Source of the DNA: a virus
Taxonomy: Duplodnaviria; Heunggongvirae; Uroviricota; Caudoviricetes
Direction: 5' to 3' (one strand)
IMG/VR virus record: IMGVR_UViG_2663762992_000009
DNA length: 28,397 bases
Shown here: positions 4,268 to 28,397 of the stretch, one piece after another
How the letters are laid out: each line of letters begins with the position of its first letter
How positions within the stretch are numbered: position 1 is the first letter of the stretch
Position numbers and translations under genes: made by a program
The notes under the pieces: generated by a model
Seen by the model: only the letters and a program-made list of their open reading frames with translations
Databases searched by the model: none
Told to the model about the DNA's origin: nothing

Positions 4268-4513
4268 GTGAGAAAGTTAATCTGTCTAATTTCGTTCGTT
4301 GCAACATGCGGATTCGGGTATCAGGCATACCAGCATCATGGACTGGCTTCTCTACTGGCTTTCTTAGTCAGCTTAGGGGCTTTTCTAACTGCTGTAGCCA
4401 ACTTAATAAGTGACAAGAAGAAGTCATCCTCTATAAGCCAAGTGATTGGTAATAACTCTTCAGGAATACAAGTCAGTGGTAATTTAACCATTAATGAAAA
4501 GGACAAAAAATGA
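4268..4513 (+). CDS. small membrane protein (two predicted TM helices), first gene of AT-rich moron
   Basis: GTG start with GAGAG about 9 nt upstream; hydrophobic segments LICLISFVATCGF and LASLLAFLVSLGAFLTAVANLI; visibly AT-rich; stop overlaps the next start (ATGA). Confidence 0.5.
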   Translation: MRKLICLISFVATCGFGYQAYQHHGLASLLAFLVSLGAFLTAVANLISDKKKSSSISQVIGNNSSGIQVSGNLTINEKDKK

Positions 4514-5418
4514 GTCTTTTCGATCATAAGTCGGGTCAACATGTCGGAGATGGTTCTACCGCAATCCAAGTAACCGGTGATGCTATCATTGGTAATACTA
4601 CTACTGAAGTAGTTACTATCTGTGAATTAGTAGTTCAAGCACAAATGGCTTCTTTAAAAGAGGAAGCATATAAACTTGTAAACCAACGAGCGATAGAATT
4701 TGGTAATCAGATTGCAGCTAAACTTTCTAGTGATCTTGATCATAAATTAAAAGAGAAATTATCCGACCCTGACATTCAATATTCGATGAACCAAGCTGTA
4801 ACTCAGGTGGCTCGAAAAGGATTTGATGAAAAATCGGAGTTACTTAAAGAGCTAATCGTTTCTAAAATTCAAACTGAAGAAGAAGAGGATAGTATAGTTA
4901 TAGATCACGCTCTTGAGGTGACATCTAAATTAACAACAAACGACATTAAATTTCTCTCTCTAATATATTACCTCAGAAACATAAATAAGATACGAAACGG
5001 TATTAACATGACAGCTCTTGCTGAAAGAAATGAAACTCACTTTGGATTAATTGGCTTTACCGTAGAGCAAAACCATTCAGCCCACAAAGAATACTATGCT
5101 CGCTATGATATTGATTACATTAAATTCTTAGATAAAATAGAGTCTTTGAGAAAAATAAACATTGATCTCCTCAGCTTAAAAGGCGTTATCTTCACAGACA
5201 AGCAATACATAACAAACTATCAAGACCTACTTGAAAAAAGGACTGGAATCACCAGCTTTGAAAGCGATGAGATGTTCTTTGAAACATTTCCTGCTTTAAA
5301 GTTAACTCTAGATGCATTTGGCGTATCGACCATAAATGACTTTAATTCATATGTTTTAAATCCAATTGGCAACCTGATTGCTCAAAACTTTCTTCGGGCT
5401 CGGAACTTCCTTCAATAG
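4510..5418 (+). CDS. hypothetical 302-aa protein, second gene of AT-rich moron (candidate defence/abortive-infection or conversion function)
   Basis: Long ORF in an AT-rich segment; AAGGA RBS about 8 nt upstream; translationally coupled to the upstream small ORF; opposite orientation to the flanking late genes; no family recognised. Confidence 0.7.
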   Translation: MSLFDHKSGQHVGDGSTAIQVTGDAIIGNTTTEVVTICELVVQAQMASLKEEAYKLVNQRAIEFGNQIAAKLSSDLDHKLKEKLSDPDIQYSMNQAVTQVARKGFDEKSELLKELIVSKIQTEEEEDSIVIDHALEVTSKLTTNDIKFLSLIYYLRNINKIRNGINMTALAERNETHFGLIGFTVEQNHSAHKEYYARYDIDYIKFLDKIESLRKINIDLLSLKGVIFTDKQYITNYQDLLEKRTGITSFESDEMFFETFPALKLTLDAFGVSTINDFNSYVLNPIGNLIAQNFLRARNFLQ

Positions 5419-5597: not shown

Positions 5598-6170
5598 TCA
5601 TTTAAAATGATTTACAACCTTAACGTCTCTGTCCTTTAACTCCATAATTTTTCCTAGTTGCTTGCGTTCCAACTCAATTTTACTGATACCAGTCAGTTGG
5701 TTATTCGCCTTCTCAATAGTAGCCAGCAGCGGCCCGATCCAGAGAACAGCCTGGCAGTATGTCAGAGAGCTGGCGGTAATGGTGTCACCACCGGCTGCAT
5801 CAGCGTTCCGGGGATCGGGGTACATTGCGCTGGCACGTAAACGGTACGCGTGGTCGAGCAGCCCGTCAGCGATATCAGCAGGAACAGGCAAATCACAGGT
5901 TTTTTCACGACGGAGTATCTCCCGGTATTCAATAACTGTTTTTTCGGAACCGGCATCAATCAGGGAGTTAAGGCGGCTGGTATTATCAGCAACCTGATTA
6001 AACCGGTTAAAGTTGAAAACCTGAGTGGCGATAACCTGCCCCTGTAGCGCGTTATCATTGCGAAGGATCCGGTTATCACTTTCTGATACAGCAAGGTCGG
6101 CCCGGCTGAATACCAGCATAACAACCACAACCAGGAACGAAATTATTGCGATAATCGTTATACGGTTCAT
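5598..6170 (-). CDS. Rz: i-spanin Rz
   Basis: N-terminal TM helix (ITIIAIISFLVVVVMLV) followed by a coiled-coil periplasmic domain; last gene of the lysis cassette; contains an embedded +1-frame lipoprotein ORF. Start placed at the ATG at 6170. Confidence 0.8.
   Translation of the reverse strand: MNRITIIAIISFLVVVVMLVFSRADLAVSESDNRILRNDNALQGQVIATQVFNFNRFNQVADNTSRLNSLIDAGSEKTVIEYREILRREKTCDLPVPADIADGLLDHAYRLRASAMYPDPRNADAAGGDTITASSLTYCQAVLWIGPLLATIEKANNQLTGISKIELERKQLGKIMELKDRDVKVVNHFK
5762..5908 (-). CDS. Rz1: o-spanin Rz1 (lipoprotein embedded in Rz, +1 frame)
   Basis: Embedded ORF with signal peptide and lipobox (LISLTGCS) and a Pro-rich C-terminus. Start placed at GTG 5908 with GGGAGA 9 nt upstream; the ORF-track start at 5959 is an alternative. 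Confidence 0.65.
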   Translation of the reverse strand: MKKPVICLFLLISLTGCSTTRTVYVPAQCTPIPGTLMQPVVTPLPPAL

Positions 6171-6174
6171 GGCT

Positions 6175-6312
6175 CTACCACCAGCGAATCGCCACAATCA
6201 GGCGCGCAATACCATACAGCACAACCGTCAACGCCACAGCCCGTATAGCCCATGCCGTAGCACTACTGATTTCTTTTGTTAACGGAGCATCTATTTCAAG
6301 GCCGTTTTTCAT
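6175..6312 (-). CDS. possible small membrane protein within lysis cassette
   Basis: Short ORF with a hydrophobic C-terminus (AIRAVALTVVLYGIARLIVAI) between the endolysin and Rz; overlaps the Rz start; the start codon is uncertain. Confidence 0.3.
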   Translation of the reverse strand: MKNGLEIDAPLTKEISSATAWAIRAVALTVVLYGIARLIVAIRWW

Positions 6313-6460: not shown

Positions 6461-6883
6461 TTAACCCGCCAGTTCGAGCGCGCGGATAAACGTATCAAAG
6501 CTGTATGGCTGGCTACCGTTCTCGTGCTTAATAATGGCCTGCAACAGCTTCATCATGAAACGACTGTCACTGGTATCAATGCGCTGGTCGGGAGTAACAC
6601 CCGTCGCCTGAGCCACGTTGTTGATATACGCCAGCGTGTTGTTCTCGTTCGGCGGCGCCCAGCGTTTAATAATGCCGGTAACCGTGTTCAGCCCGTGCTT
6701 ACGCTGGTAATTGCGCAGGATGATGATCATCGCCCGGATACCATACTCAGGCGTAGTGAACTGGCAGAATGATTTATCAGTGCGCTGTGCTTTGGGTACC
6801 AGGCCCTGCCACTCATCACCCCACCGGATATTGCCGGGGTTGTTGTTGCGGATCCCGCGAGAAATTTTACTGGTTCTCATCAT
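6461..6883 (-). CDS. putative endolysin (muramidase-like), assigned mainly by position
   Basis: 140-aa ORF immediately after the holin, start overlapping the holin end; soluble, no TM segment; motif RNNNPGNIR. No similarity to lambda R or T4 lysozyme recognised by eye. Confidence 0.55.
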   Translation of the reverse strand: MMRTSKISRGIRNNNPGNIRWGDEWQGLVPKAQRTDKSFCQFTTPEYGIRAMIIILRNYQRKHGLNTVTGIIKRWAPPNENNTLAYINNVAQATGVTPDQRIDTSDSRFMMKLLQAIIKHENGSQPYSFDTFIRALELAG

Positions 6884-7243: not shown

Positions 7244-7268
7244 AAAAAATTCAGCCTTCCGGGCTGAG
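7244..7268 (-). terminator. candidate intrinsic terminator between tRNAs and holin (minus strand)
   Basis: Hairpin TCAGCC (7251-7256) / GGCTGA (7262-7267) with a 5-nt loop; on the minus strand it is followed by a run of six U. Confidence 0.45.
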
Positions 7269-7467
7269 TATGCTGCAGATCTGAATACGAAAAAGGCCAC
7301 GCAAATGCGCAGCCTTTATAACGCGAGTTTTATTATTCGGAGGCACTCCATCCAACAAACCACCCATGGTTGCCAGGATTTTAACGGAGTGCTTTTGGAT
7401 GAGCGCTGGACCGGAAGGTCAGTATTTTTACACAGCAATTTTGCAAAAAGCAGCGCCCATTCAAAAC

Positions 7468-7543
<76 letters not shown>

Positions 7544-7546
7544 TTT

Positions 7547-7623
7547 TGGTGGCCCTTGCTGGACTTGAACCAGCGACCTGGCGATTATGAGTCGCACGCT
7601 CTGACCAACTGAGCTAAAGGGCC
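7547..7623 (-). tRNA. tRNA with CAU anticodon (Ile2-lysidine type or Met)
   Basis: Full cloverleaf on the minus strand: acceptor GGCCCTT/AAGGGCC, D-arm GCTC/GAGC, anticodon loop CTCATAA, T-arm GCTGG-TTCAAGT-CCAGC, CCA end; closely resembles the E. coli ileX sequence as I recall it. Confidence 0.85.
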
Positions 7624-7630
7624 ATGACGC

Positions 7631-7737
7631 TGCGGTGCCGGACCGCTATTATTCCGGTAGATTGCGCGCTGATACACAATCTGCTTCGCGAAAATTCTCC
7701 ATTTCAGCAAGCCTCAACGCTAGTGAGATTCACCGCA
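7631..7737. repeat. repeat unit A (~100-nt element with complementary termini TGCGGTG...CACCGCA)
   Basis: Shares 5' end tgcggtgccgg and 3' end cgctagtgagattcaccgca with the units at 8860-8963 and 9074-9166; abuts the tRNA-Ile gene. Confidence 0.7.
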
Positions 7738-7938
7738 ATGAGAAAAATTTATCGTCCGCAGATTCTGGCAGGCAAGGCCTCTTCCAAATAAATTACTCAA
7801 AATGCGAAACTGCGCACGGAGAATTAAACCTTCAAAAAGCTAAGACATCACACTTGACCGGTTCAGAAAAAAATCATTATGTTCTTTCTGCTTCTCCCAT
7901 GAAGCGACCTCAATTATTTTCTGCTTATGTGTGATTTT

Positions 7939-7966
7939 GCCCGTTCTGTATGACGGGCTTTTTTCA
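7939..7966 (+). terminator. rho-independent terminator hairpin, plus orientation (element copy 1)
   Basis: GCCCGT (7939-7944) / ACGGGC (7953-7958) with an 8-nt loop, followed by TTTTTT; the preceding ~45 nt resemble the element at 9328-9400. Confidence 0.6.
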
Positions 7967-8014: not shown

Positions 8015-8449
8015 CTAATTCCATACAGTTCCCCTGGCGACCGAATAACGCCCTGCCCCCAGTAATGCAACTGACAGAGAGCCAACAAAAAAATACACCA
8101 GGCTTTCTATTCCCCACGCGCCAGTACTTTCGAGCATCCATGTTTCCTCTACCCCCACCAGAAGCCAGGCCACAATCATTGTAAAAGCCAGCAACAGTGC
8201 TGCGGGGCGAGTAAGAACCCCAAGAATAATCAGGCCTGGAGCCAAAACCTCTCCCACAATTGCTCCGTATGCGAAAAATCCAGGTAAGCCGTTAGCTATA
8301 AGCATGCCGCTAATACCTTCAACTCCTGCAAAGAGCTTATGCAAACCATGAAATAACATCAGCCCACCAACAGCAAGTCTTAACAGGAACTTACCAAAGT
8401 CAGCATGGGATAAGATCTGGTTAATTTTATTCAGTACGATAGTAATCAT
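8015..8449 (-). CDS. DoxX-family inner-membrane protein (cargo gene in the Q-to-lysis region)
   Basis: 144-aa ORF with four hydrophobic segments and a DoxX-like N-terminus (FGKFLLRLAVGGLMLFHGLHKL); GGAG SD 9 nt upstream of the ATG at 8449. Confidence 0.7.
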   Translation of the reverse strand: MITIVLNKINQILSHADFGKFLLRLAVGGLMLFHGLHKLFAGVEGISGMLIANGLPGFFAYGAIVGEVLAPGLIILGVLTRPAALLLAFTMIVAWLLVGVEETWMLESTGAWGIESLVYFFVGSLSVALLGAGRYSVARGTVWN

Positions 8450-8859
8450 TGTTCATCACTCCAAGTAAAAAAGGAATGAGAAAAACAAATCACCAGCAGG
8501 CTACAACAGTCAATCTGTTCGGCTGTAAATCACAAACAAGTTAAATAGACTGTTAACACCCACCCTACCTGAATTATTACGCCAAAAAAGGAGATAAAGC
8601 GATAAATCTTATTAGCATGTAACTATTGTTCAACTCAATAGAGCCCATACACTAAGTTTTATTGCCCCTAATAATCCGATGACCAACAGAATGATGCTAA
8701 TTAAGAATACCTGATTCGTTGTAAATCTGATACTGCGTAAATATGCCTTTAGAGCATTAGCAGTTCTGTATTTATTCTGCATTTTCCCGCTCAGAAATCA
8801 CATCAATGACCAATTTAAAAGTAGAGCCCGAATAATCTATCTCCACGACCCGATATGAG

Positions 8860-8963
8860 TGCGGTGCCGGTCGCAACCCGGTGAAACGTATCCATGGTGT
8901 GGTGCAATACATACTGGCAGAATGAATAGTGCCACACCCCTCACGCTGGTGAGATTCACCGCA
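8860..8963. repeat. repeat unit B
   Basis: Same conserved termini as unit A. Read on the minus strand it shows a 7-bp terminal helix, a D-arm-like hairpin (CTCA-CCAGCG-TGAG), a long central hairpin and a T-arm-like hairpin (CCGG-GTTGCGA-CCGG). Confidence 0.7.
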
Positions 8964-9073
8964 GGAGGTAACGTATAAACGGCAGGTGCTTTAGATCAAG
9001 CTTTTTATCATGTCGGCGAAATGAAAAAGGGCTCACCGAAGTGAGCCCTGAATTACCGCCGTTTTCAATTTGC

Positions 9074-9166
9074 CGCAGTGCCGGGTGCCTCCCGATGGTA
9101 TTAACCGCAACGTCAACAGTGGAAGCGAAACCTGACGATGCCCCTACGCTAGTGGGATTCACTGCA
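9074..9166. repeat. repeat unit C (more diverged copy)
   Basis: 5' end gcagtgccgg and 3' end cgctagtgggattcactgca match units A and B with a few substitutions. Confidence 0.6.
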
Positions 9167-9372
9167 ACGGGGGGAACCTATTACCCGCAGACAGCGGCTG
9201 ACAAGATATTTATTTTGCTGAAATGCCAAAATGTGAATCTGCGCATATGAAATTAAACAGAACTTAAACAATTGCAGATACGAACTTGATAGGTTTATGA
9301 AGAAATTACTACGGTCCTCAGGCTTCCCCCTATGAAGCACTTAAGCCTCTTACCTTTTCCAATTGTGATTTT

Positions 9373-9400
9373 GCCCGCTATCTGACGCGGGCCCTTTTTT
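9373..9400 (+). terminator. rho-independent terminator hairpin, plus orientation (element copy 2)
   Basis: GCCCGC (9373-9378) / GCGGGC (9387-9392) with an 8-nt loop, followed by CCTTTTTT; upstream sequence is conserved with copy 1 (atgaagc ... tgtgattttgcccg). Confidence 0.65.
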
Positions 9401-9416
9401 ATACGGAGAACTGAGA

Positions 9417-9491
9417 ATGCCGTGTCATGAAAAAATGGCTATCGCAATCTGTGTTATTGCGCTCATCTTCGCACTGATTTTTGGCAAGTAG
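9417..9491 (+). CDS. candidate 24-aa hydrophobic small ORF (MPCHEKMAIAICVIALIFALIFGK)
   Basis: ATG at 9417 preceded by GGAGA with 7-nt spacing; single hydrophobic helix; lies between a plus-strand terminator and a minus-strand terminator hairpin. Confidence 0.3.
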   Translation: MPCHEKMAIAICVIALIFALIFGK

Positions 9492-9506: not shown

Positions 9507-9541
9507 TCTTTTAAAAACGACAAAACCCGCACCGTGGCGGG
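9507..9541 (-). terminator. candidate tR'-like intrinsic terminator downstream of Q (minus strand)
   Basis: GC hairpin CCCGC/GCGGG (9526-9541); on the minus strand it is followed by UUUUGUCGUUUUUAAAA; about 270 nt downstream of the Q stop. Confidence 0.45.
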
Positions 9542-9807
9542 TTCATCTGGTGTTCATGTTCTGCATCCTTGACCTCGCGATACAGCTTTGCGAAGCATAC
9601 AGTGATTGAAGCAGTTTATGGCTCAAATTGCAATACTTTTTCAGCGACGTAATTTGACCTTAATCATATGCTTTATTACTCTTCGCCTGCATTTAAACAC
9701 TGATATAACTTAGTTATACTTCCATTCATCTTGCACATTGATATTTCCACAAAAATCACCCGCAGCTTTTTACTGTCAAGTTTCAGTTAGTGGATAAGCA
9801 CAACTCA

Positions 9808-10347
9808 TCACACATTCCTATCAATGGAATCCCGTAGCGGGATATAAAGCATGTATTCAACCATATACAGCCATTGGTCGATTCGTCGCCGACAGGTAAC
9901 ATAACTCCAGTCAGGGTATTTTTCCTGAAGTTTCTCAGCTATCTTTCGCTTACTCATTCCCCGTCCTTCGTAACGCTGGTGAAGCAGTGCCTTTAGTGCG
10001 GGATGATCTGCCAGAACTGCCCCGATAACCCGGTCGATTATCAGTGCTTCAGAATCAGTACAGTATGCAAGGTAGCTTTTCTGCTTACCGTTCAATATCT
10101 CACGTAAAAATTGCTCCAGTTCAGGCCTGGTAGTGCCTGATTTTTTAAGCAGCCTGAGCGCATCACGGGCGCCTGTGCGGGTGATTTTTTTACTGACCAG
10201 CAACTGATTGAAGATATTTCCCGGATGGCCATTTCCGATATAAGACCAGCGCCCCCACATTCTTAGCTTTCCCTGTACCCATAACGTCTCAAGCGTAGTG
10301 AGACGAAGCATTTCACCAGGTTTACCTGTCGTGACCGGGTAGATCAT
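9808..10347 (-). CDS. late-gene antiterminator Q-like protein
   Basis: 179-aa ORF immediately upstream of the tRNA/lysis region and after the nin genes; basic C-terminal region with HTH-like character (KRKIAEKL ... RRRIDQWL); start overlaps the upstream gene's stop. Confidence 0.75.
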   Translation of the reverse strand: MIYPVTTGKPGEMLRLTTLETLWVQGKLRMWGRWSYIGNGHPGNIFNQLLVSKKITRTGARDALRLLKKSGTTRPELEQFLREILNGKQKSYLAYCTDSEALIIDRVIGAVLADHPALKALLHQRYEGRGMSKRKIAEKLQEKYPDWSYVTCRRRIDQWLYMVEYMLYIPLRDSIDRNV

Positions 10348-11415: not shown

Positions 11416-12456
11416 TCATCGAACATTCGGTGATATTGCTATCTTTAGATCACTAGTAAGCATCGCGGCCTGCTTTTCTAAAGCCTCTAACATAAAATCT
11501 GTTTTGTCTTGTATCCTAACGAGTAAATAGAATGGTTCACTACTCGTACAGGTTAAACGTGATGTTGTAAAGTCATCACGGTGAGGTATTAATGCGCGAT
11601 AATTTCCTTCAGCGATAAACATAAAGCGAGCATTAGGATGTTCACTGAGCCACATATACTTATTCCTGCAAAAGAAAGTATCGCGTGTGTCATACTTCAT
11701 GGCAAATCCAAAACCGACTTTTATGATGGATAACGTATGTATACTAAATGCAACATATGAAATGCAGCCAATAAGAAATAATGGGACGAAAACTGACATT
11801 AAATAGTTATTATCATCATCAGTTGGCGTTACTTTCCTTTTCTTTACTTTTGAGGGCATCAATATTAAACAAATAATGCAAACAAGGTAAATGATGCAAT
11901 ACAATATAAAAATAAAAAGTAATGCTACAACTGCCGTCATGAGTTTATTGAATGTAGCATCAAATGGAATGTCAAACAAATTGGAAATTAGCGAGCGTGC
12001 AATATAATATGAAATTAATGATACAATTACCCACACATATTTAATTCCCAGGTTAATTTTTATGGCTATGTTTTTTTCTTCATTATCGAACGATTTTATG
12101 TGAGATGATATTGTGTATGTAATACACAATATCGTCACAAAAGCCAATGTATATGGAATGATGGTATTTATATAACCAATAACGTTAAAGGAAACAATTG
12201 TTAATAAAAACAGAAATACCGACAACAGTGCGGCATCTTGCGTTTTTTTATAATTTTTTCGAAGGCGAACGGCCTGTTGACTGGATGACTTTTTATTCCA
12301 ATTATTTTGTACGATTAATCCGCTGAGAATAATCATACCAAACCAAATAAGAATGGGGTATACAGGATCACTCTGAGGTATGATGACGAGCACTGCCATA
12401 AAAAACAATAAACTGTGAACAATCCCGAGGTGTAAGGAAGAGTATATACTTTTCAT
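11416..12456 (-). CDS. AT-rich polytopic membrane protein with C-terminal soluble domain (cargo; candidate superinfection-exclusion/defence protein)
   Basis: 346-aa ORF, strongly AT-rich; about seven hydrophobic segments in the first ~230 aa, then a ~110-aa hydrophilic tail; AAGG SD upstream of the ATG at 12456; about 180-bp gaps on both sides. Confidence 0.7.
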   Translation of the reverse strand: MKSIYSSLHLGIVHSLLFFMAVLVIIPQSDPVYPILIWFGMIILSGLIVQNNWNKKSSSQQAVRLRKNYKKTQDAALLSVFLFLLTIVSFNVIGYINTIIPYTLAFVTILCITYTISSHIKSFDNEEKNIAIKINLGIKYVWVIVSLISYYIARSLISNLFDIPFDATFNKLMTAVVALLFIFILYCIIYLVCIICLILMPSKVKKRKVTPTDDDNNYLMSVFVPLFLIGCISYVAFSIHTLSIIKVGFGFAMKYDTRDTFFCRNKYMWLSEHPNARFMFIAEGNYRALIPHRDDFTTSRLTCTSSEPFYLLVRIQDKTDFMLEALEKQAAMLTSDLKIAISPNVR

Positions 12457-25949: not shown

Positions 25950-27197
25950 ATGGCTGCTTTACCAACAGGTGTAGAAATCAGAGGTAGTAGCATCTGTATC
26001 TGGTTTATGTACAGAGGAAAACGTTGCCGCGAAACTCTCAGAGGATGGAGCATAACACCTGCTAATATCAGAAAAGCAGGTAATCTGCGCTCAATTATCG
26101 TCAGTGAAATCAACATGGGCGAGTTCGACTACCAGACTCGCTTCCCATCCTCCAAAAAAGCAATAAAAATTGTCACTACGGTTTCAGTCAGAACTCTAGG
26201 CGAACTCTGTGATCTGTGGCTGTCGATAAAAGAGACTGAACTGGCGGCTAACACCTTGCGCAAAACCAGCTCGCAGCTCGACACGCTGAAATTCATTATC
26301 AATAAAAACACGCCACTTTCGACGATTCGCCACAGCGACATTCTGAACTACCGCAACGAGCTGCTAAACGGAGAGACAAATTACCGAAACGCCACGAGAG
26401 GAAATAAAACCGGCCGTACCGCGCGCACGGTTGATAATTACATTTCCCTGCTCTGCTCCCTGCTCCGTTTTGCGCAGCACTCAGGGTTTATTAAGCACAA
26501 ACCTTTTGAGGGGGTTCGGAAGCTGCAAAAAGCCCGGATCAAACCGGACCCGCTCACAAAGCAGGAGTTTGCACAGTTGATGGAAGCAGAATACGGCCAG
26601 AGCCAGAATCTGTGGAAATTTGCAGTATATACGGGCCTTCGTCATGGTGAACTTGCTGCGCTGGCGTGGGAGGATGTGGATCTCGAGGCGGGAACAGTCA
26701 GCGTGTGCCGTAATCTGACCATTATCGGTACCTTCGGGCCGCCAAAGACAGATGCAGGCTACCGGACAATAAAGCTGCTGGAACCTGCGTTGGAAGCGTT
26801 GAAAGCACAGCGTGAACTTACCGCCCTCCAGCCAAAGTCAAAAATCGTTTTTAACCACCGTGAATATGGAAGGACAGAAACCCAGCGCGTGCACTTTGTT
26901 TTCATGCCAAGGATGCGTAAAGGCGAGCAAAAACCGTATTACAGCGTATCGAGCATCGGGCACCGTTGGAACGCTGCCGTAAAACGTGCTGGCATTCGTC
27001 GTCGGAATCCATATCACACACGGCATACTTTCGCCTGCTGGTTGTTATCCGCCGGTGCAAACCCGTCGTTTATCGCAAGTCAGATGGGACATGAAAATGC
27101 ACAAATGGTTTATGAAGTATATGCAACATGGATGGATGATATGAACAAAGATCAAATTGAACTAATTAATAGAAACTTACTAAACTCTTTATTTTAA
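25950..27197 (+). CDS. int: tyrosine site-specific integrase (lambda/Rac IntR-like)
   Basis: 415 aa; N-terminal arm-binding-like region (LPTGVEIRGSSICIWFMYRGKRCRETL); catalytic signature GLRHGELAAL ... HTRHTFACWLLSAGANPSFIASQMGH ... VY (R, H-x-x-R, Y). Confidence 0.9.
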   Translation: MAALPTGVEIRGSSICIWFMYRGKRCRETLRGWSITPANIRKAGNLRSIIVSEINMGEFDYQTRFPSSKKAIKIVTTVSVRTLGELCDLWLSIKETELAANTLRKTSSQLDTLKFIINKNTPLSTIRHSDILNYRNELLNGETNYRNATRGNKTGRTARTVDNYISLLCSLLRFAQHSGFIKHKPFEGVRKLQKARIKPDPLTKQEFAQLMEAEYGQSQNLWKFAVYTGLRHGELAALAWEDVDLEAGTVSVCRNLTIIGTFGPPKTDAGYRTIKLLEPALEALKAQRELTALQPKSKIVFNHREYGRTETQRVHFVFMPRMRKGEQKPYYSVSSIGHRWNAAVKRAGIRRRNPYHTRHTFACWLLSAGANPSFIASQMGHENAQMVYEVYATWMDDMNKDQIELINRNLLNSLF

Positions 27198-28397
27198 GAA
27201 AGATGATATAAACATCGTACAATTCAAAATCAGATTACTGAATGATAATGCCGACACTAAACCGAATATTTTATATAACGTGTTACATTGAGAATCCAAT
27301 GCATTCTCTTTTTTATTAAGCTCCGTCAACTCTAACTTTTTCAACTCATCACGCATTGTCCTAAAAAGAACACTATACTCTGACTGACATTCTTGCACCA
27401 ATACTTTTTGATAATTTGTAAGATAATATATGGTGAACGTCGTATATAAAGAAAGAACTATAGCTGCCATATTTAAAACCCACGAGTTTACATTATCAAA
27501 TTTCCCCATGGCAGCAAAACTGATTATTCCAGATATAGGAATGGCAAGTGACCTTGTAAGGGTGTCATACATTATGGAATTGAGTTTAGATAAATAATCC
27601 CTGAATTTCTCTTGGTACTCCTTTCTTATTTTTTCAAAACTAAACCCGACCGTAAACGAAAGGTAATTTTCTTGGAAAATCCGTGAGAACAATGTAAAGT
27701 CGGTTAAAATTTTTGAAAGTCGATCTTCTTTCTTTACTCTCCATAAAAAAGAGAACAATACGTTCTGTAGAATGTGTTTTTTCTCCTGTTCATGCAAGAG
27801 GTCAGAGAATAATTTTTCAAAACTTGAAAACCCATCAAATTCGTAAGCTAAATCTTCAAATTTATAGTTAAGATCTAAATACAATTTATTTTTTGATAAA
27901 AACAACAACTCTCTCCCGTTCTCCCCATCAGAACAATCTGTAAGTATTTTCCAAATTTTCGAAACTTGAAAATACCGTAATATTTCATTCCGGTTATAAT
28001 CATCAGGACAAATTGTGCATTTTCCTTCATTCGTAGTTGATGAAATTAAAATAAACCGATTACCAGCAAGAGGTCTATTTGCAACCAGCTCTTTTTCATC
28101 ATAAAAAACTTCGATCTGCCCTCTTAACCTGTCAAGGTTCATGCTGACAATAAAATATTTTACCCCTCCACTTTGCAGCATTGAGGGAGAATCGGACCAA
28201 GCGTGAAAATTACGTTTATAAATTTTAGAATTAAGTTCTACTTCATATTGAGGTTCCAGTAGGTATTGCTCACTACGTTTAAATGCGAGATCAAATACTT
28301 CCTGCTCAAATTGAAGTTCTAAAGTAAGAAAGCCATTATCGTATCCCATTATTTTGGATTTATTTAATATCTCCTTTATATTTTCAAAGCTTACCAT
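27189..28397 (-). CDS. AT-rich hypothetical protein with C-terminal TM helices, convergent with int (N-terminus at or beyond window edge)
   Basis: 402-codon ORF, strongly AT-rich; 3' end overlaps the int stop by 9 nt; C-terminal hydrophobic segments (AIPISGIISFAAMG, WVLNMAAIVLSLYTTFTIYYL, IFGLVSALSFSNLIL); ORF runs to the last base of the window. Confidence 0.7.
   Translation of the reverse strand: MVSFENIKEILNKSKIMGYDNGFLTLELQFEQEVFDLAFKRSEQYLLEPQYEVELNSKIYKRNFHAWSDSPSMLQSGGVKYFIVSMNLDRLRGQIEVFYDEKELVANRPLAGNRFILISSTTNEGKCTICPDDYNRNEILRYFQVSKIWKILTDCSDGENGRELLFLSKNKLYLDLNYKFEDLAYEFDGFSSFEKLFSDLLHEQEKKHILQNVLFSFLWRVKKEDRLSKILTDFTLFSRIFQENYLSFTVGFSFEKIRKEYQEKFRDYLSKLNSIMYDTLTRSLAIPISGIISFAAMGKFDNVNSWVLNMAAIVLSLYTTFTIYYLTNYQKVLVQECQSEYSVLFRTMRDELKKLELTELNKKENALDSQCNTLYKIFGLVSALSFSNLILNCTMFISSFLK

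Follow-up and report, generated by a model that had tools for sequence, protein, structure and literature searches.

The window analysed here (28,397 nucleotides, IMG/VR record IMGVR_UViG_2663762992_000009; all positions below are those of the window) is part of a lambdoid prophage whose late genes lie on the minus strand, and its late region contains a DoxX-family gene, doxX, encoding a 144-aa protein from an ATG start codon (Table 1). doxX is co-oriented with the late genes, with the antiterminator gene Q (whose PHROG family, 753, is labelled "anti-termination protein Q-like") upstream, and the holin, endolysin, and spanin genes downstream. This is the placement between Q and the holin that had been proposed in a sequence-only reading of the window. 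The late region is in turn bordered by the terminase genes and, at its other end, by replication, recombination, and integrase genes. The integrase end of the same prophage abuts ttcA, dbpA, and zntB, which are on the same contig and 100% identical to their Escherichia coli counterparts, and this rules out a non-Escherichia host; the ttcA junction is the Rac attachment site. Because a single E. coli contig (CCBT01000076.1) carries both the ttcA-side junction and the Q-doxX-holin region, doxX must lie deep within a lambdoid E. coli prophage. The possibility that the gene is a fragment of a host gene at a prophage boundary, which had been named as a potential flaw of the cargo proposal, could be dismissed, since the open reading frame (ORF) is full length, is located in the prophage interior, and has flanks with no homology to the host. 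What had been called cargo is indeed a full-length, host-type gene in a prophage late region.

Table 1. Features of the Q-to-spanin region of the window
Feature	Position	Strand	Evidence
Rz-like spanin	5598-6197	-	phrog_214, E 2e-47
Endolysin	6461-6883	-	phrog_873, E 5e-65
Holin, M-K-M dual start	6867-7196/7211	-	Phage_holin_3_1, 128 bits
Two terminator-like hairpins just ahead of holin (7317-7292 and 7267-7251)	7251-7317	-	Pattern scan
Chimeric tRNA remnant	7479-7536	-	Partial match, Rfam only, 44.8 bits
tRNA-Met (CAT), phage	7547-7623	-	ARAGORN; Rfam 71 bits
STnc100-like copy A, degenerate	7631-7737	-	Rfam 30.6 bits, E 3e-4
Repeat unit A, includes hairpin 7939-7958 (plus-strand terminator-like)	7717-7964	.	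Repeat search, alignment, terminator scan
doxX, DoxX-family inner-membrane protein (predicted), 144 aa	8015-8449	-	ORF list, Pfam, conserved residues, AF2 model, fold search
Weak sigma-70 promoter candidate for doxX, TTGAAC-16-TAAGAT	8606-8633	-	Lenient scan, 8/12 matches
orf50, 50-aa single-pass membrane protein (putative), upstream of doxX	8630-8782	-	ORF list; dN/dS between variants
STnc100-like copy B, degenerate, no terminator	8817-8987	-	Rfam E 0.026, 23.3 bits
STnc100 copy C, complete, own terminator 9049-9028	9018-9195	-	Rfam RF02076, 66.2 bits, gathering score 47
Repeat unit C, ~290 nt common with unit A	9146-9398	.	Repeat search, alignment
Terminator-like hairpin and T-run T1, downstream of Q, within 99.5% module	9523-9544	-	Pattern scan
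Late antiterminator Q, DUF1133 type	9808-10347	-	DUF1133 288 bits, Phage_antitermQ 29.8 bits, PHROG 753 E 3e-64

The only ORF adjacent to doxX, orf50, has no Pfam, PHROG, or PADLOC match, and its sole homolog among 5.8 billion proteins is found in a diverged variant of the cassette, where it has been called as an 86-aa protein. The two variants of orf50 share 82% nucleotide identity with a dN/dS of 0.21, so orf50 is probably a genuine gene and moves together with doxX. Several other features of this prophage deserve mention in their own right. At the position of the chimeric tRNA remnant, the carrier locus L001 has a tRNA-Arg(TCT) and a tRNA-Gly(TCC), both intact according to ARAGORN, and overlapping BLAST segments indicate that a deletion by tRNA-tRNA recombination generated the chimera; another carrier, L004, has only the tRNA-Met. 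A second cargo-like gene, encoding a 302-aa protein of the LPO_1073/Vpar_1526 family with no PADLOC match, is found between the spanin and terminase genes (4510-5418, plus strand). Upstream of the DUF1367-YbcO-Q block, there is a gene for a 346-aa multi-pass membrane protein (11416-12456, minus strand) with no Pfam, NCBIfam, PHROG, or PADLOC match, which certain carrier prophages retain; L001 and L002 have other genes in its place. Finally, the ORF that adjoins the integrase gene towards ttcA (27189-28397, minus strand) is 402 aa long and has a weak match to the NCBIfam anti-phage family DS1_2 (50.8 bits versus a cut-off of 315); it may represent defence-type cargo close to the attachment site. 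In L097 (8970-11209), an NA37-like gene precedes it.

The doxX product and its relatives

The assignment to the DoxX family made in the sequence-only reading is supported by profile search, in which the protein matches Pfam DoxX (PF07681) with 74.4 bits (E 1.1e-20, cut-off 23.6) over profile positions 2-83 of 85. Translation is likewise credible as had been proposed, a GGAG Shine-Dalgarno sequence being found at 8462-8459, 9 nt ahead of the ATG. Our AlphaFold2 model (mean pLDDT 95.7) has four long helices (residues 16-41, 57-76, 80-102, and 115-130), an N-terminal helix, and one short helix; the protein is thus modelled as a four-helix inner-membrane protein, in line with the earlier proposal. 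In an alignment of 85 sequences reaching down to 33% identity, the phage protein keeps the three invariant residues of the subfamily (R24, G35, and G77), as well as every residue that is at least 90% conserved (L23, H34, K38, P56, E67, P71, R81, G110, E115, G131, and G133). No sequence relative was found in the PDB. When the model was used in a fold search, the top solved structure was that of the DoxX-family protein NACHO/TMEM35A (PDB 9h9e, chain C), a eukaryotic endoplasmic reticulum chaperone for ion-channel assembly rather than an enzyme; at 14% identity, this fold match carries no evidence of a common function.

Biochemically, DoxX proteins are a mixed group, and to our knowledge no enterobacterial DoxX protein, including those of the poxB-linked subfamily discussed below, has a demonstrated activity. 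A weak match (27 bits, E 8.8e-6, residues 17-138) links it to PHROG 4606, which is labelled "quinone oxidoreductase TQO", and this label is the only pointer to a thiosulfate:quinone oxidoreductase of the DoxD/DoxA type, as there is no DoxA partner and orf50 is the sole adjacent ORF. PHROG 4606 groups DoxX-like proteins of phages in the category "moron, auxiliary metabolic gene", so phage cargo with a DoxX fold has a precedent, weak as the match to our protein is. The NCBIfam family NF050144, which covers HvfX-type DoxX proteins of Cu-binding RiPP maturation, scores 27.5 bits against a cut-off of 80, and there are no DUF692 or DUF2063 neighbours. E. coli K-12 has two proteins of the same Pfam family and size class, YqjF and YphA, but they are just 32-33% identical to the phage protein over partial alignments and are encoded in other genomic neighbourhoods. 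yqjF adjoins yqjG, the gene for a glutathionyl-hydroquinone reductase, and a DoxX operon of Haemophilus is induced by HOCl. The yqjF promoter has been used in DNT bioreporters and studied together with YhaJ, a regulator of aromatic-compound degradation (PMC5031710). In Mycobacterium tuberculosis, according to the passage of PMC7907618 that cites Nambi 2015, DoxX is part of a membrane thiol-oxidoreductase complex with SseA and SodA; this protein, the chief experimental precedent for a thiol/redox role, belongs to the same Pfam family but is distant, and the window has no sseA or sodA nearby. By analogy with such relatives, the most likely role of the doxX product would be that of a quinone- or thiol-linked membrane redox helper.

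Capture, maintenance, and modular spread

The closest chromosomal genes clearly point to a poxB-hcr-linked enterobacterial DoxX as the source lineage. A search of the 5.8-billion-protein set returned a cluster of sequences 98-100% identical to the doxX product, with source names E. coli, Enterobacteriaceae, and Salmonella, and all other hits at no more than 78% identity; a Salmonella variant (P0123) is roughly 94% identical. The near relatives whose context was inspected are all chromosomal: in two, the gene is flanked by poxB and hcr, and in three it adjoins poxB where the contig ends. Among 80 species-representative loci, poxB is adjacent in 74 and hcr in 71, the exceptions being confined to Aeromonas and Moellerella, whose contexts (a TetR-MFS pair upstream in the Moellerella locus) give no functional hint. 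The nearest of these chromosomal relatives, in Citrobacter, Klebsiella, and Raoultella, are full length and resemble the phage protein in size (144 aa), conserved residues, and predicted four-helix topology (75% amino acid identity for C. amalonaticus). They differ in that the phage copy sits in a prophage late region, has lost the flanking homology, which ends at the ORF boundaries, and is accompanied by a small membrane ORF missing from the chromosomal loci. In E. coli itself, a chromosomal ortholog is present in only one of 5,426 complete genomes, that of strain GF131, in the order hcr-doxX-poxB and with 68.5% nucleotide identity. The chromosomal orthologs are monocistronic and have no dedicated partner, poxB and hcr being neighbours rather than operon partners. 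Synteny is therefore poorly informative on function, but this organization fits capture of doxX as a stand-alone gene.

Base composition suggests that this capture is an old one. The GC3 of doxX is 43%, versus 55-73% in the enterobacterial chromosomal orthologs, and its overall GC content (46.9%) equals that of the window (46.8%); elsewhere, GC3 is 49-52% in Q, holin, and DUF1367, and 69% in the endolysin gene. Judged by these values, the GC3 of doxX has drifted to phage level by amelioration, so that either the capture was not recent or the donor remains unsampled. Since doxX has no odd base composition, the classical signature of a moron is absent. That doxX has been kept under purifying selection is well supported by sequence comparisons on two scales. 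Against the chromosomal orthologs, dN is ~0.17-0.25 with saturated dS, and dN/dS is no higher than 0.14. Against a variant cassette, L103, which is 92% identical at the nucleotide level over 9006-7793, 11 of the 435 positions of doxX differ, eight of them synonymously and three non-synonymously, giving a dN/dS of 0.12. In the same comparison the doxX ORF is 97.5% identical, versus ~90% for its flanks. The 179-nt spacer between orf50 and doxX is ~95% conserved, versus 82% for orf50, which suggests that doxX has a regulatory region of its own.

The cassette is modular. A ~2.1-kb module (9641-7488) is 99.5% identical across prophages that otherwise differ in the C terminus of Q, in the presence of an isrK/C4/ORF6N insert, in the lysis genes (Phage_holin_3_1 versus Phage_holin_2_1 plus lysozyme), and in the portal and terminase genes. 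Seven loci have the doxX ORF without a single nucleotide difference. Two insertions seen right after Q in other carriers are absent from the window: isrK, a C4 antisense RNA, and an antirepressor-like ORF6N gene in L001 and L004 (7990-8800), and a YecR-like gene in L107 (3180-3521). In the collection searched, 182 blocks index the exact doxX protein; the carrier assemblies number roughly 180, and GCA_037004805.1 and GCA_000939335.1 are two assemblies with this prophage. In the distinct contexts listed for it, Q lies ahead in all six and a holin behind in five, the sixth, L006, stopping at the gene; conversely, doxX is also present in all three distinct contexts of the exact holin. Overall, the order Q-doxX-holin was found in eight independent contexts, the contig of the ninth (L006) ending at doxX.

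Outside this set, the element is rare. The Q region and cassette had no match in 5,426 RefSeq complete E. coli genomes, no doxX homolog was detected among 50,697 phage records (INPHARED; tblastn, E ≤1e-5), and no close copy was found on plasmids. A single IMG/VR contig has doxX and is the same element, and BFVD returned only DoxX/MauE proteins of giant viruses with marginal E-values. The sequence-only reading had recommended comparing homologous prophages for alternative cargo at the same site. Megablast and blastn searches of E. coli genomes and of phages, together with two exact-pattern scans of IMG/VR, recovered only the same element, so this comparison yielded no alternative cargo; nor did any sister prophage without the cassette turn up in the RefSeq complete E. 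coli genomes, INPHARED, or IMG/VR.

STnc100 repeats and transcription signals

The repeat units that had been noticed on both sides of doxX proved to be one complete and two degenerate copies of STnc100, the latter (A and B) scoring below the gathering threshold of 47. They share a 21-nt core, ACGCTAGTGAGATTCACCGCA, whose three copies (at 7717, 8943, and 9146) are 90-100% identical, and repeat search and alignment revealed ~290 nt common to 7717-7964 and 9146-9398. Elements of this type thus flank the doxX cargo on both sides, and copy B forms the left edge of the cassette, homology with L103 beginning at 9006.

The Q-to-lysis interval of lambdoid phages is a known site for Shiga toxin and other fitness genes. 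In the Stx2a phage F349, stx2AB is located between Q and the holin, as the sequence-only reading had stated for stx, and there are parallels with doxX: non-phage cargo is co-oriented with the late genes, and phage tRNAs and an STnc100 element are found in the same interval (PMC12370729). STnc100 lies 75 nt past stx2B in F349 and directly ahead of the nanS-p esterase gene in a non-Stx O-group prophage, placements that are consistent with PMC12370729 and with the 2026 Storz-lab preprint cited next, so STnc100-type elements are regular landmarks of the Q-to-holin interval. STnc100 has been described as prophage-encoded and PasD-related (2026 Storz-lab preprint). The layouts differ nonetheless. 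Stx phages have the order Q, tRNAs, stx, STnc100, nanS-p, and holin, whereas the window has Q, STnc100, STnc100-like, orf50, doxX, STnc100-like, tRNAs, and holin. In the window, the cargo is upstream of the phage tRNAs, is accompanied by orf50, and is a host-type membrane protein rather than a secreted toxin.

Signals on the coding strand suggest how doxX could be transcribed. The pattern scan marked two terminator-like sites in the stretch from Q to doxX, one at 9544-9523 and another, which belongs to STnc100, at 9049-9028, and none between STnc100-like copy B and doxX. The T-run belonging to the hairpin past doxX (7958-7939) is found on the opposite strand and not on the coding strand. A lenient scan identified a likely STnc100 promoter (TTGGCA-15-TATCTT, 9229-9203) and the weak candidate at 8633-8606, which lies 155 nt ahead of doxX; conservation resembling -35 and -10 elements across the three repeat units is suggestive only. 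A TTGACA right after Q (near 9778) was considered as pR' and dismissed since it lacks a usable -10. On the basis of these predicted signals, expression of doxX is most likely to occur by Q-dependent read-through on induction, possibly supplemented by a weak promoter of its own.

The interval holds other potential small genes. On the plus strand, opposite to the late genes, there are paired sRNA-like paralogues at 7888-7966 and 9318-9400, each with a 5' hairpin (GCUUC...GAAGC), a ~30-nt U-rich linker, and a GC-rich terminator followed by a U-run. Their terminator stems show a compensatory difference (T-A to C-G), their folding z-scores are -3.5 and -1.7, a promoter-like site (TTGACC-18-TATGTT) precedes the unit at 7888-7966, and neither unit matches an Rfam family at threshold. 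In addition, a 24-aa hydrophobic ORF (MPCHEKMAIAICVIALIFALIFGK; 9417-9491, plus strand), with a GGAG 8 nt upstream, belongs to the conserved 2.1-kb module, where it falls between Q and the first STnc100 copy, and resembles a type I toxin or a small membrane peptide.

Possible functions and significance

The reading that we favour, with a probability of roughly one in two, treats doxX as functional cargo made up of a single gene, of the moron or auxiliary type, captured and ameliorated, borne on a module, encoding a redox helper, and expressed by Q read-through and a weak promoter. On this reading, an ancestral phage took up the coding sequence of an enterobacterial chromosomal DoxX from between poxB and hcr, and the gene has resided in phages long enough to reach their base composition. 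Together with the small membrane ORF, it moves as a ~2.1-kb module bounded by STnc100-like repeats and recombines among different lambdoid backbones. By family precedent, its product is most likely a quinone-linked redox helper that handles thiols, hydroquinones, or electrophiles. On induction, Q-antiterminated late transcripts would pass both upstream terminators into doxX, and in lysogens the weak promoter in the conserved 179-nt leader could sustain low-level transcription. The prophage supplies E. coli with a DoxX paralogue that is nearly always missing from the species. Identity, fold, position, origin, selection, and modular spread are established by the comparisons above; the route of expression, including transcription driven by Q, the biochemical activity, and the benefit, such as the lysogenic conversion suggested in the sequence-only reading, are inferred.

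The principal competing explanation, which is possible but to our mind doubtful, is that doxX acts purely in the lytic phase: silent in the lysogen, where the two upstream terminators would block it, and made only when Q antiterminates, it would maintain the quinone pool and membrane energetics under the oxidative or genotoxic stress of induction and so serve the phage rather than the lysogen. The two terminator-like sites between Q and doxX together with the absence of a strong promoter, the embedding of the co-oriented gene in the late operon, and a placement analogous to that of stx2AB are all consistent with such a role. However, the leader, better conserved than orf50, points to regulation of its own, the retention of all the host-type conserved residues makes the protein look like a housekeeping paralogue, and the lack of a detectable homolog among INPHARED phages argues that doxX is not a general lytic requirement. 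Another reading, which we regard as improbable, is that orf50 and doxX form a late membrane module acting on the quinone pool or the proton-motive force, which would either time holin triggering or protect phage production under the inducing oxidative and quinone stresses.

Two further explanations fare worse. That doxX, alone or with orf50, has no redox role and is instead a modulator of lysis timing, a superinfection-exclusion factor, or an anti-phage factor is suggested by the presence of two small, adjacent membrane ORFs immediately upstream of the lysis cassette, and by a nearest solved fold that is a non-enzymatic chaperone of membrane proteins. We nevertheless consider this very unlikely: PADLOC found no match for doxX, orf50, or three other unassigned ORFs, the protein is 65-78% identical to the products of widespread Enterobacteriaceae chromosomal genes that have no phage context, and the same cassette precedes members of two unrelated holin families, Phage_holin_3_1 and Phage_holin_2_1, which makes a holin-specific role in particular unlikely. 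Least probable of all is that doxX is a neutral passenger, functionless in the phage, that hitch-hikes with the STnc100-like repeats and tRNAs. The copies of the cassette are near-clonal, and recent spread could explain the identity of the ORF in seven loci, but a dN/dS of 0.12 within the phage lineage, an ORF more conserved than its flanks, and the retention of the full ORF, Shine-Dalgarno sequence, and conserved residues despite the long residence implied by the ameliorated GC3 all speak against it.

Taken as functional cargo, the doxX prophage is a real but fairly ordinary case of a kind of phage gene that is already known, and it reveals no new mechanism. If the improbable notion of a late orf50-doxX membrane module were true, the module would add a novel functional class to the late-region genes of lambdoid phages and offer a handle on the biochemistry of bacterial DoxX proteins. 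Short of this, a host-type DoxX adds a clean new example to the contents of the Q-to-lysis slot, in which a phage gives E. coli a gene that is chromosomal in its relatives and has been almost universally lost in E. coli. As a single-gene, partner-free DoxX, it is also one whose phenotype should be easy to test.
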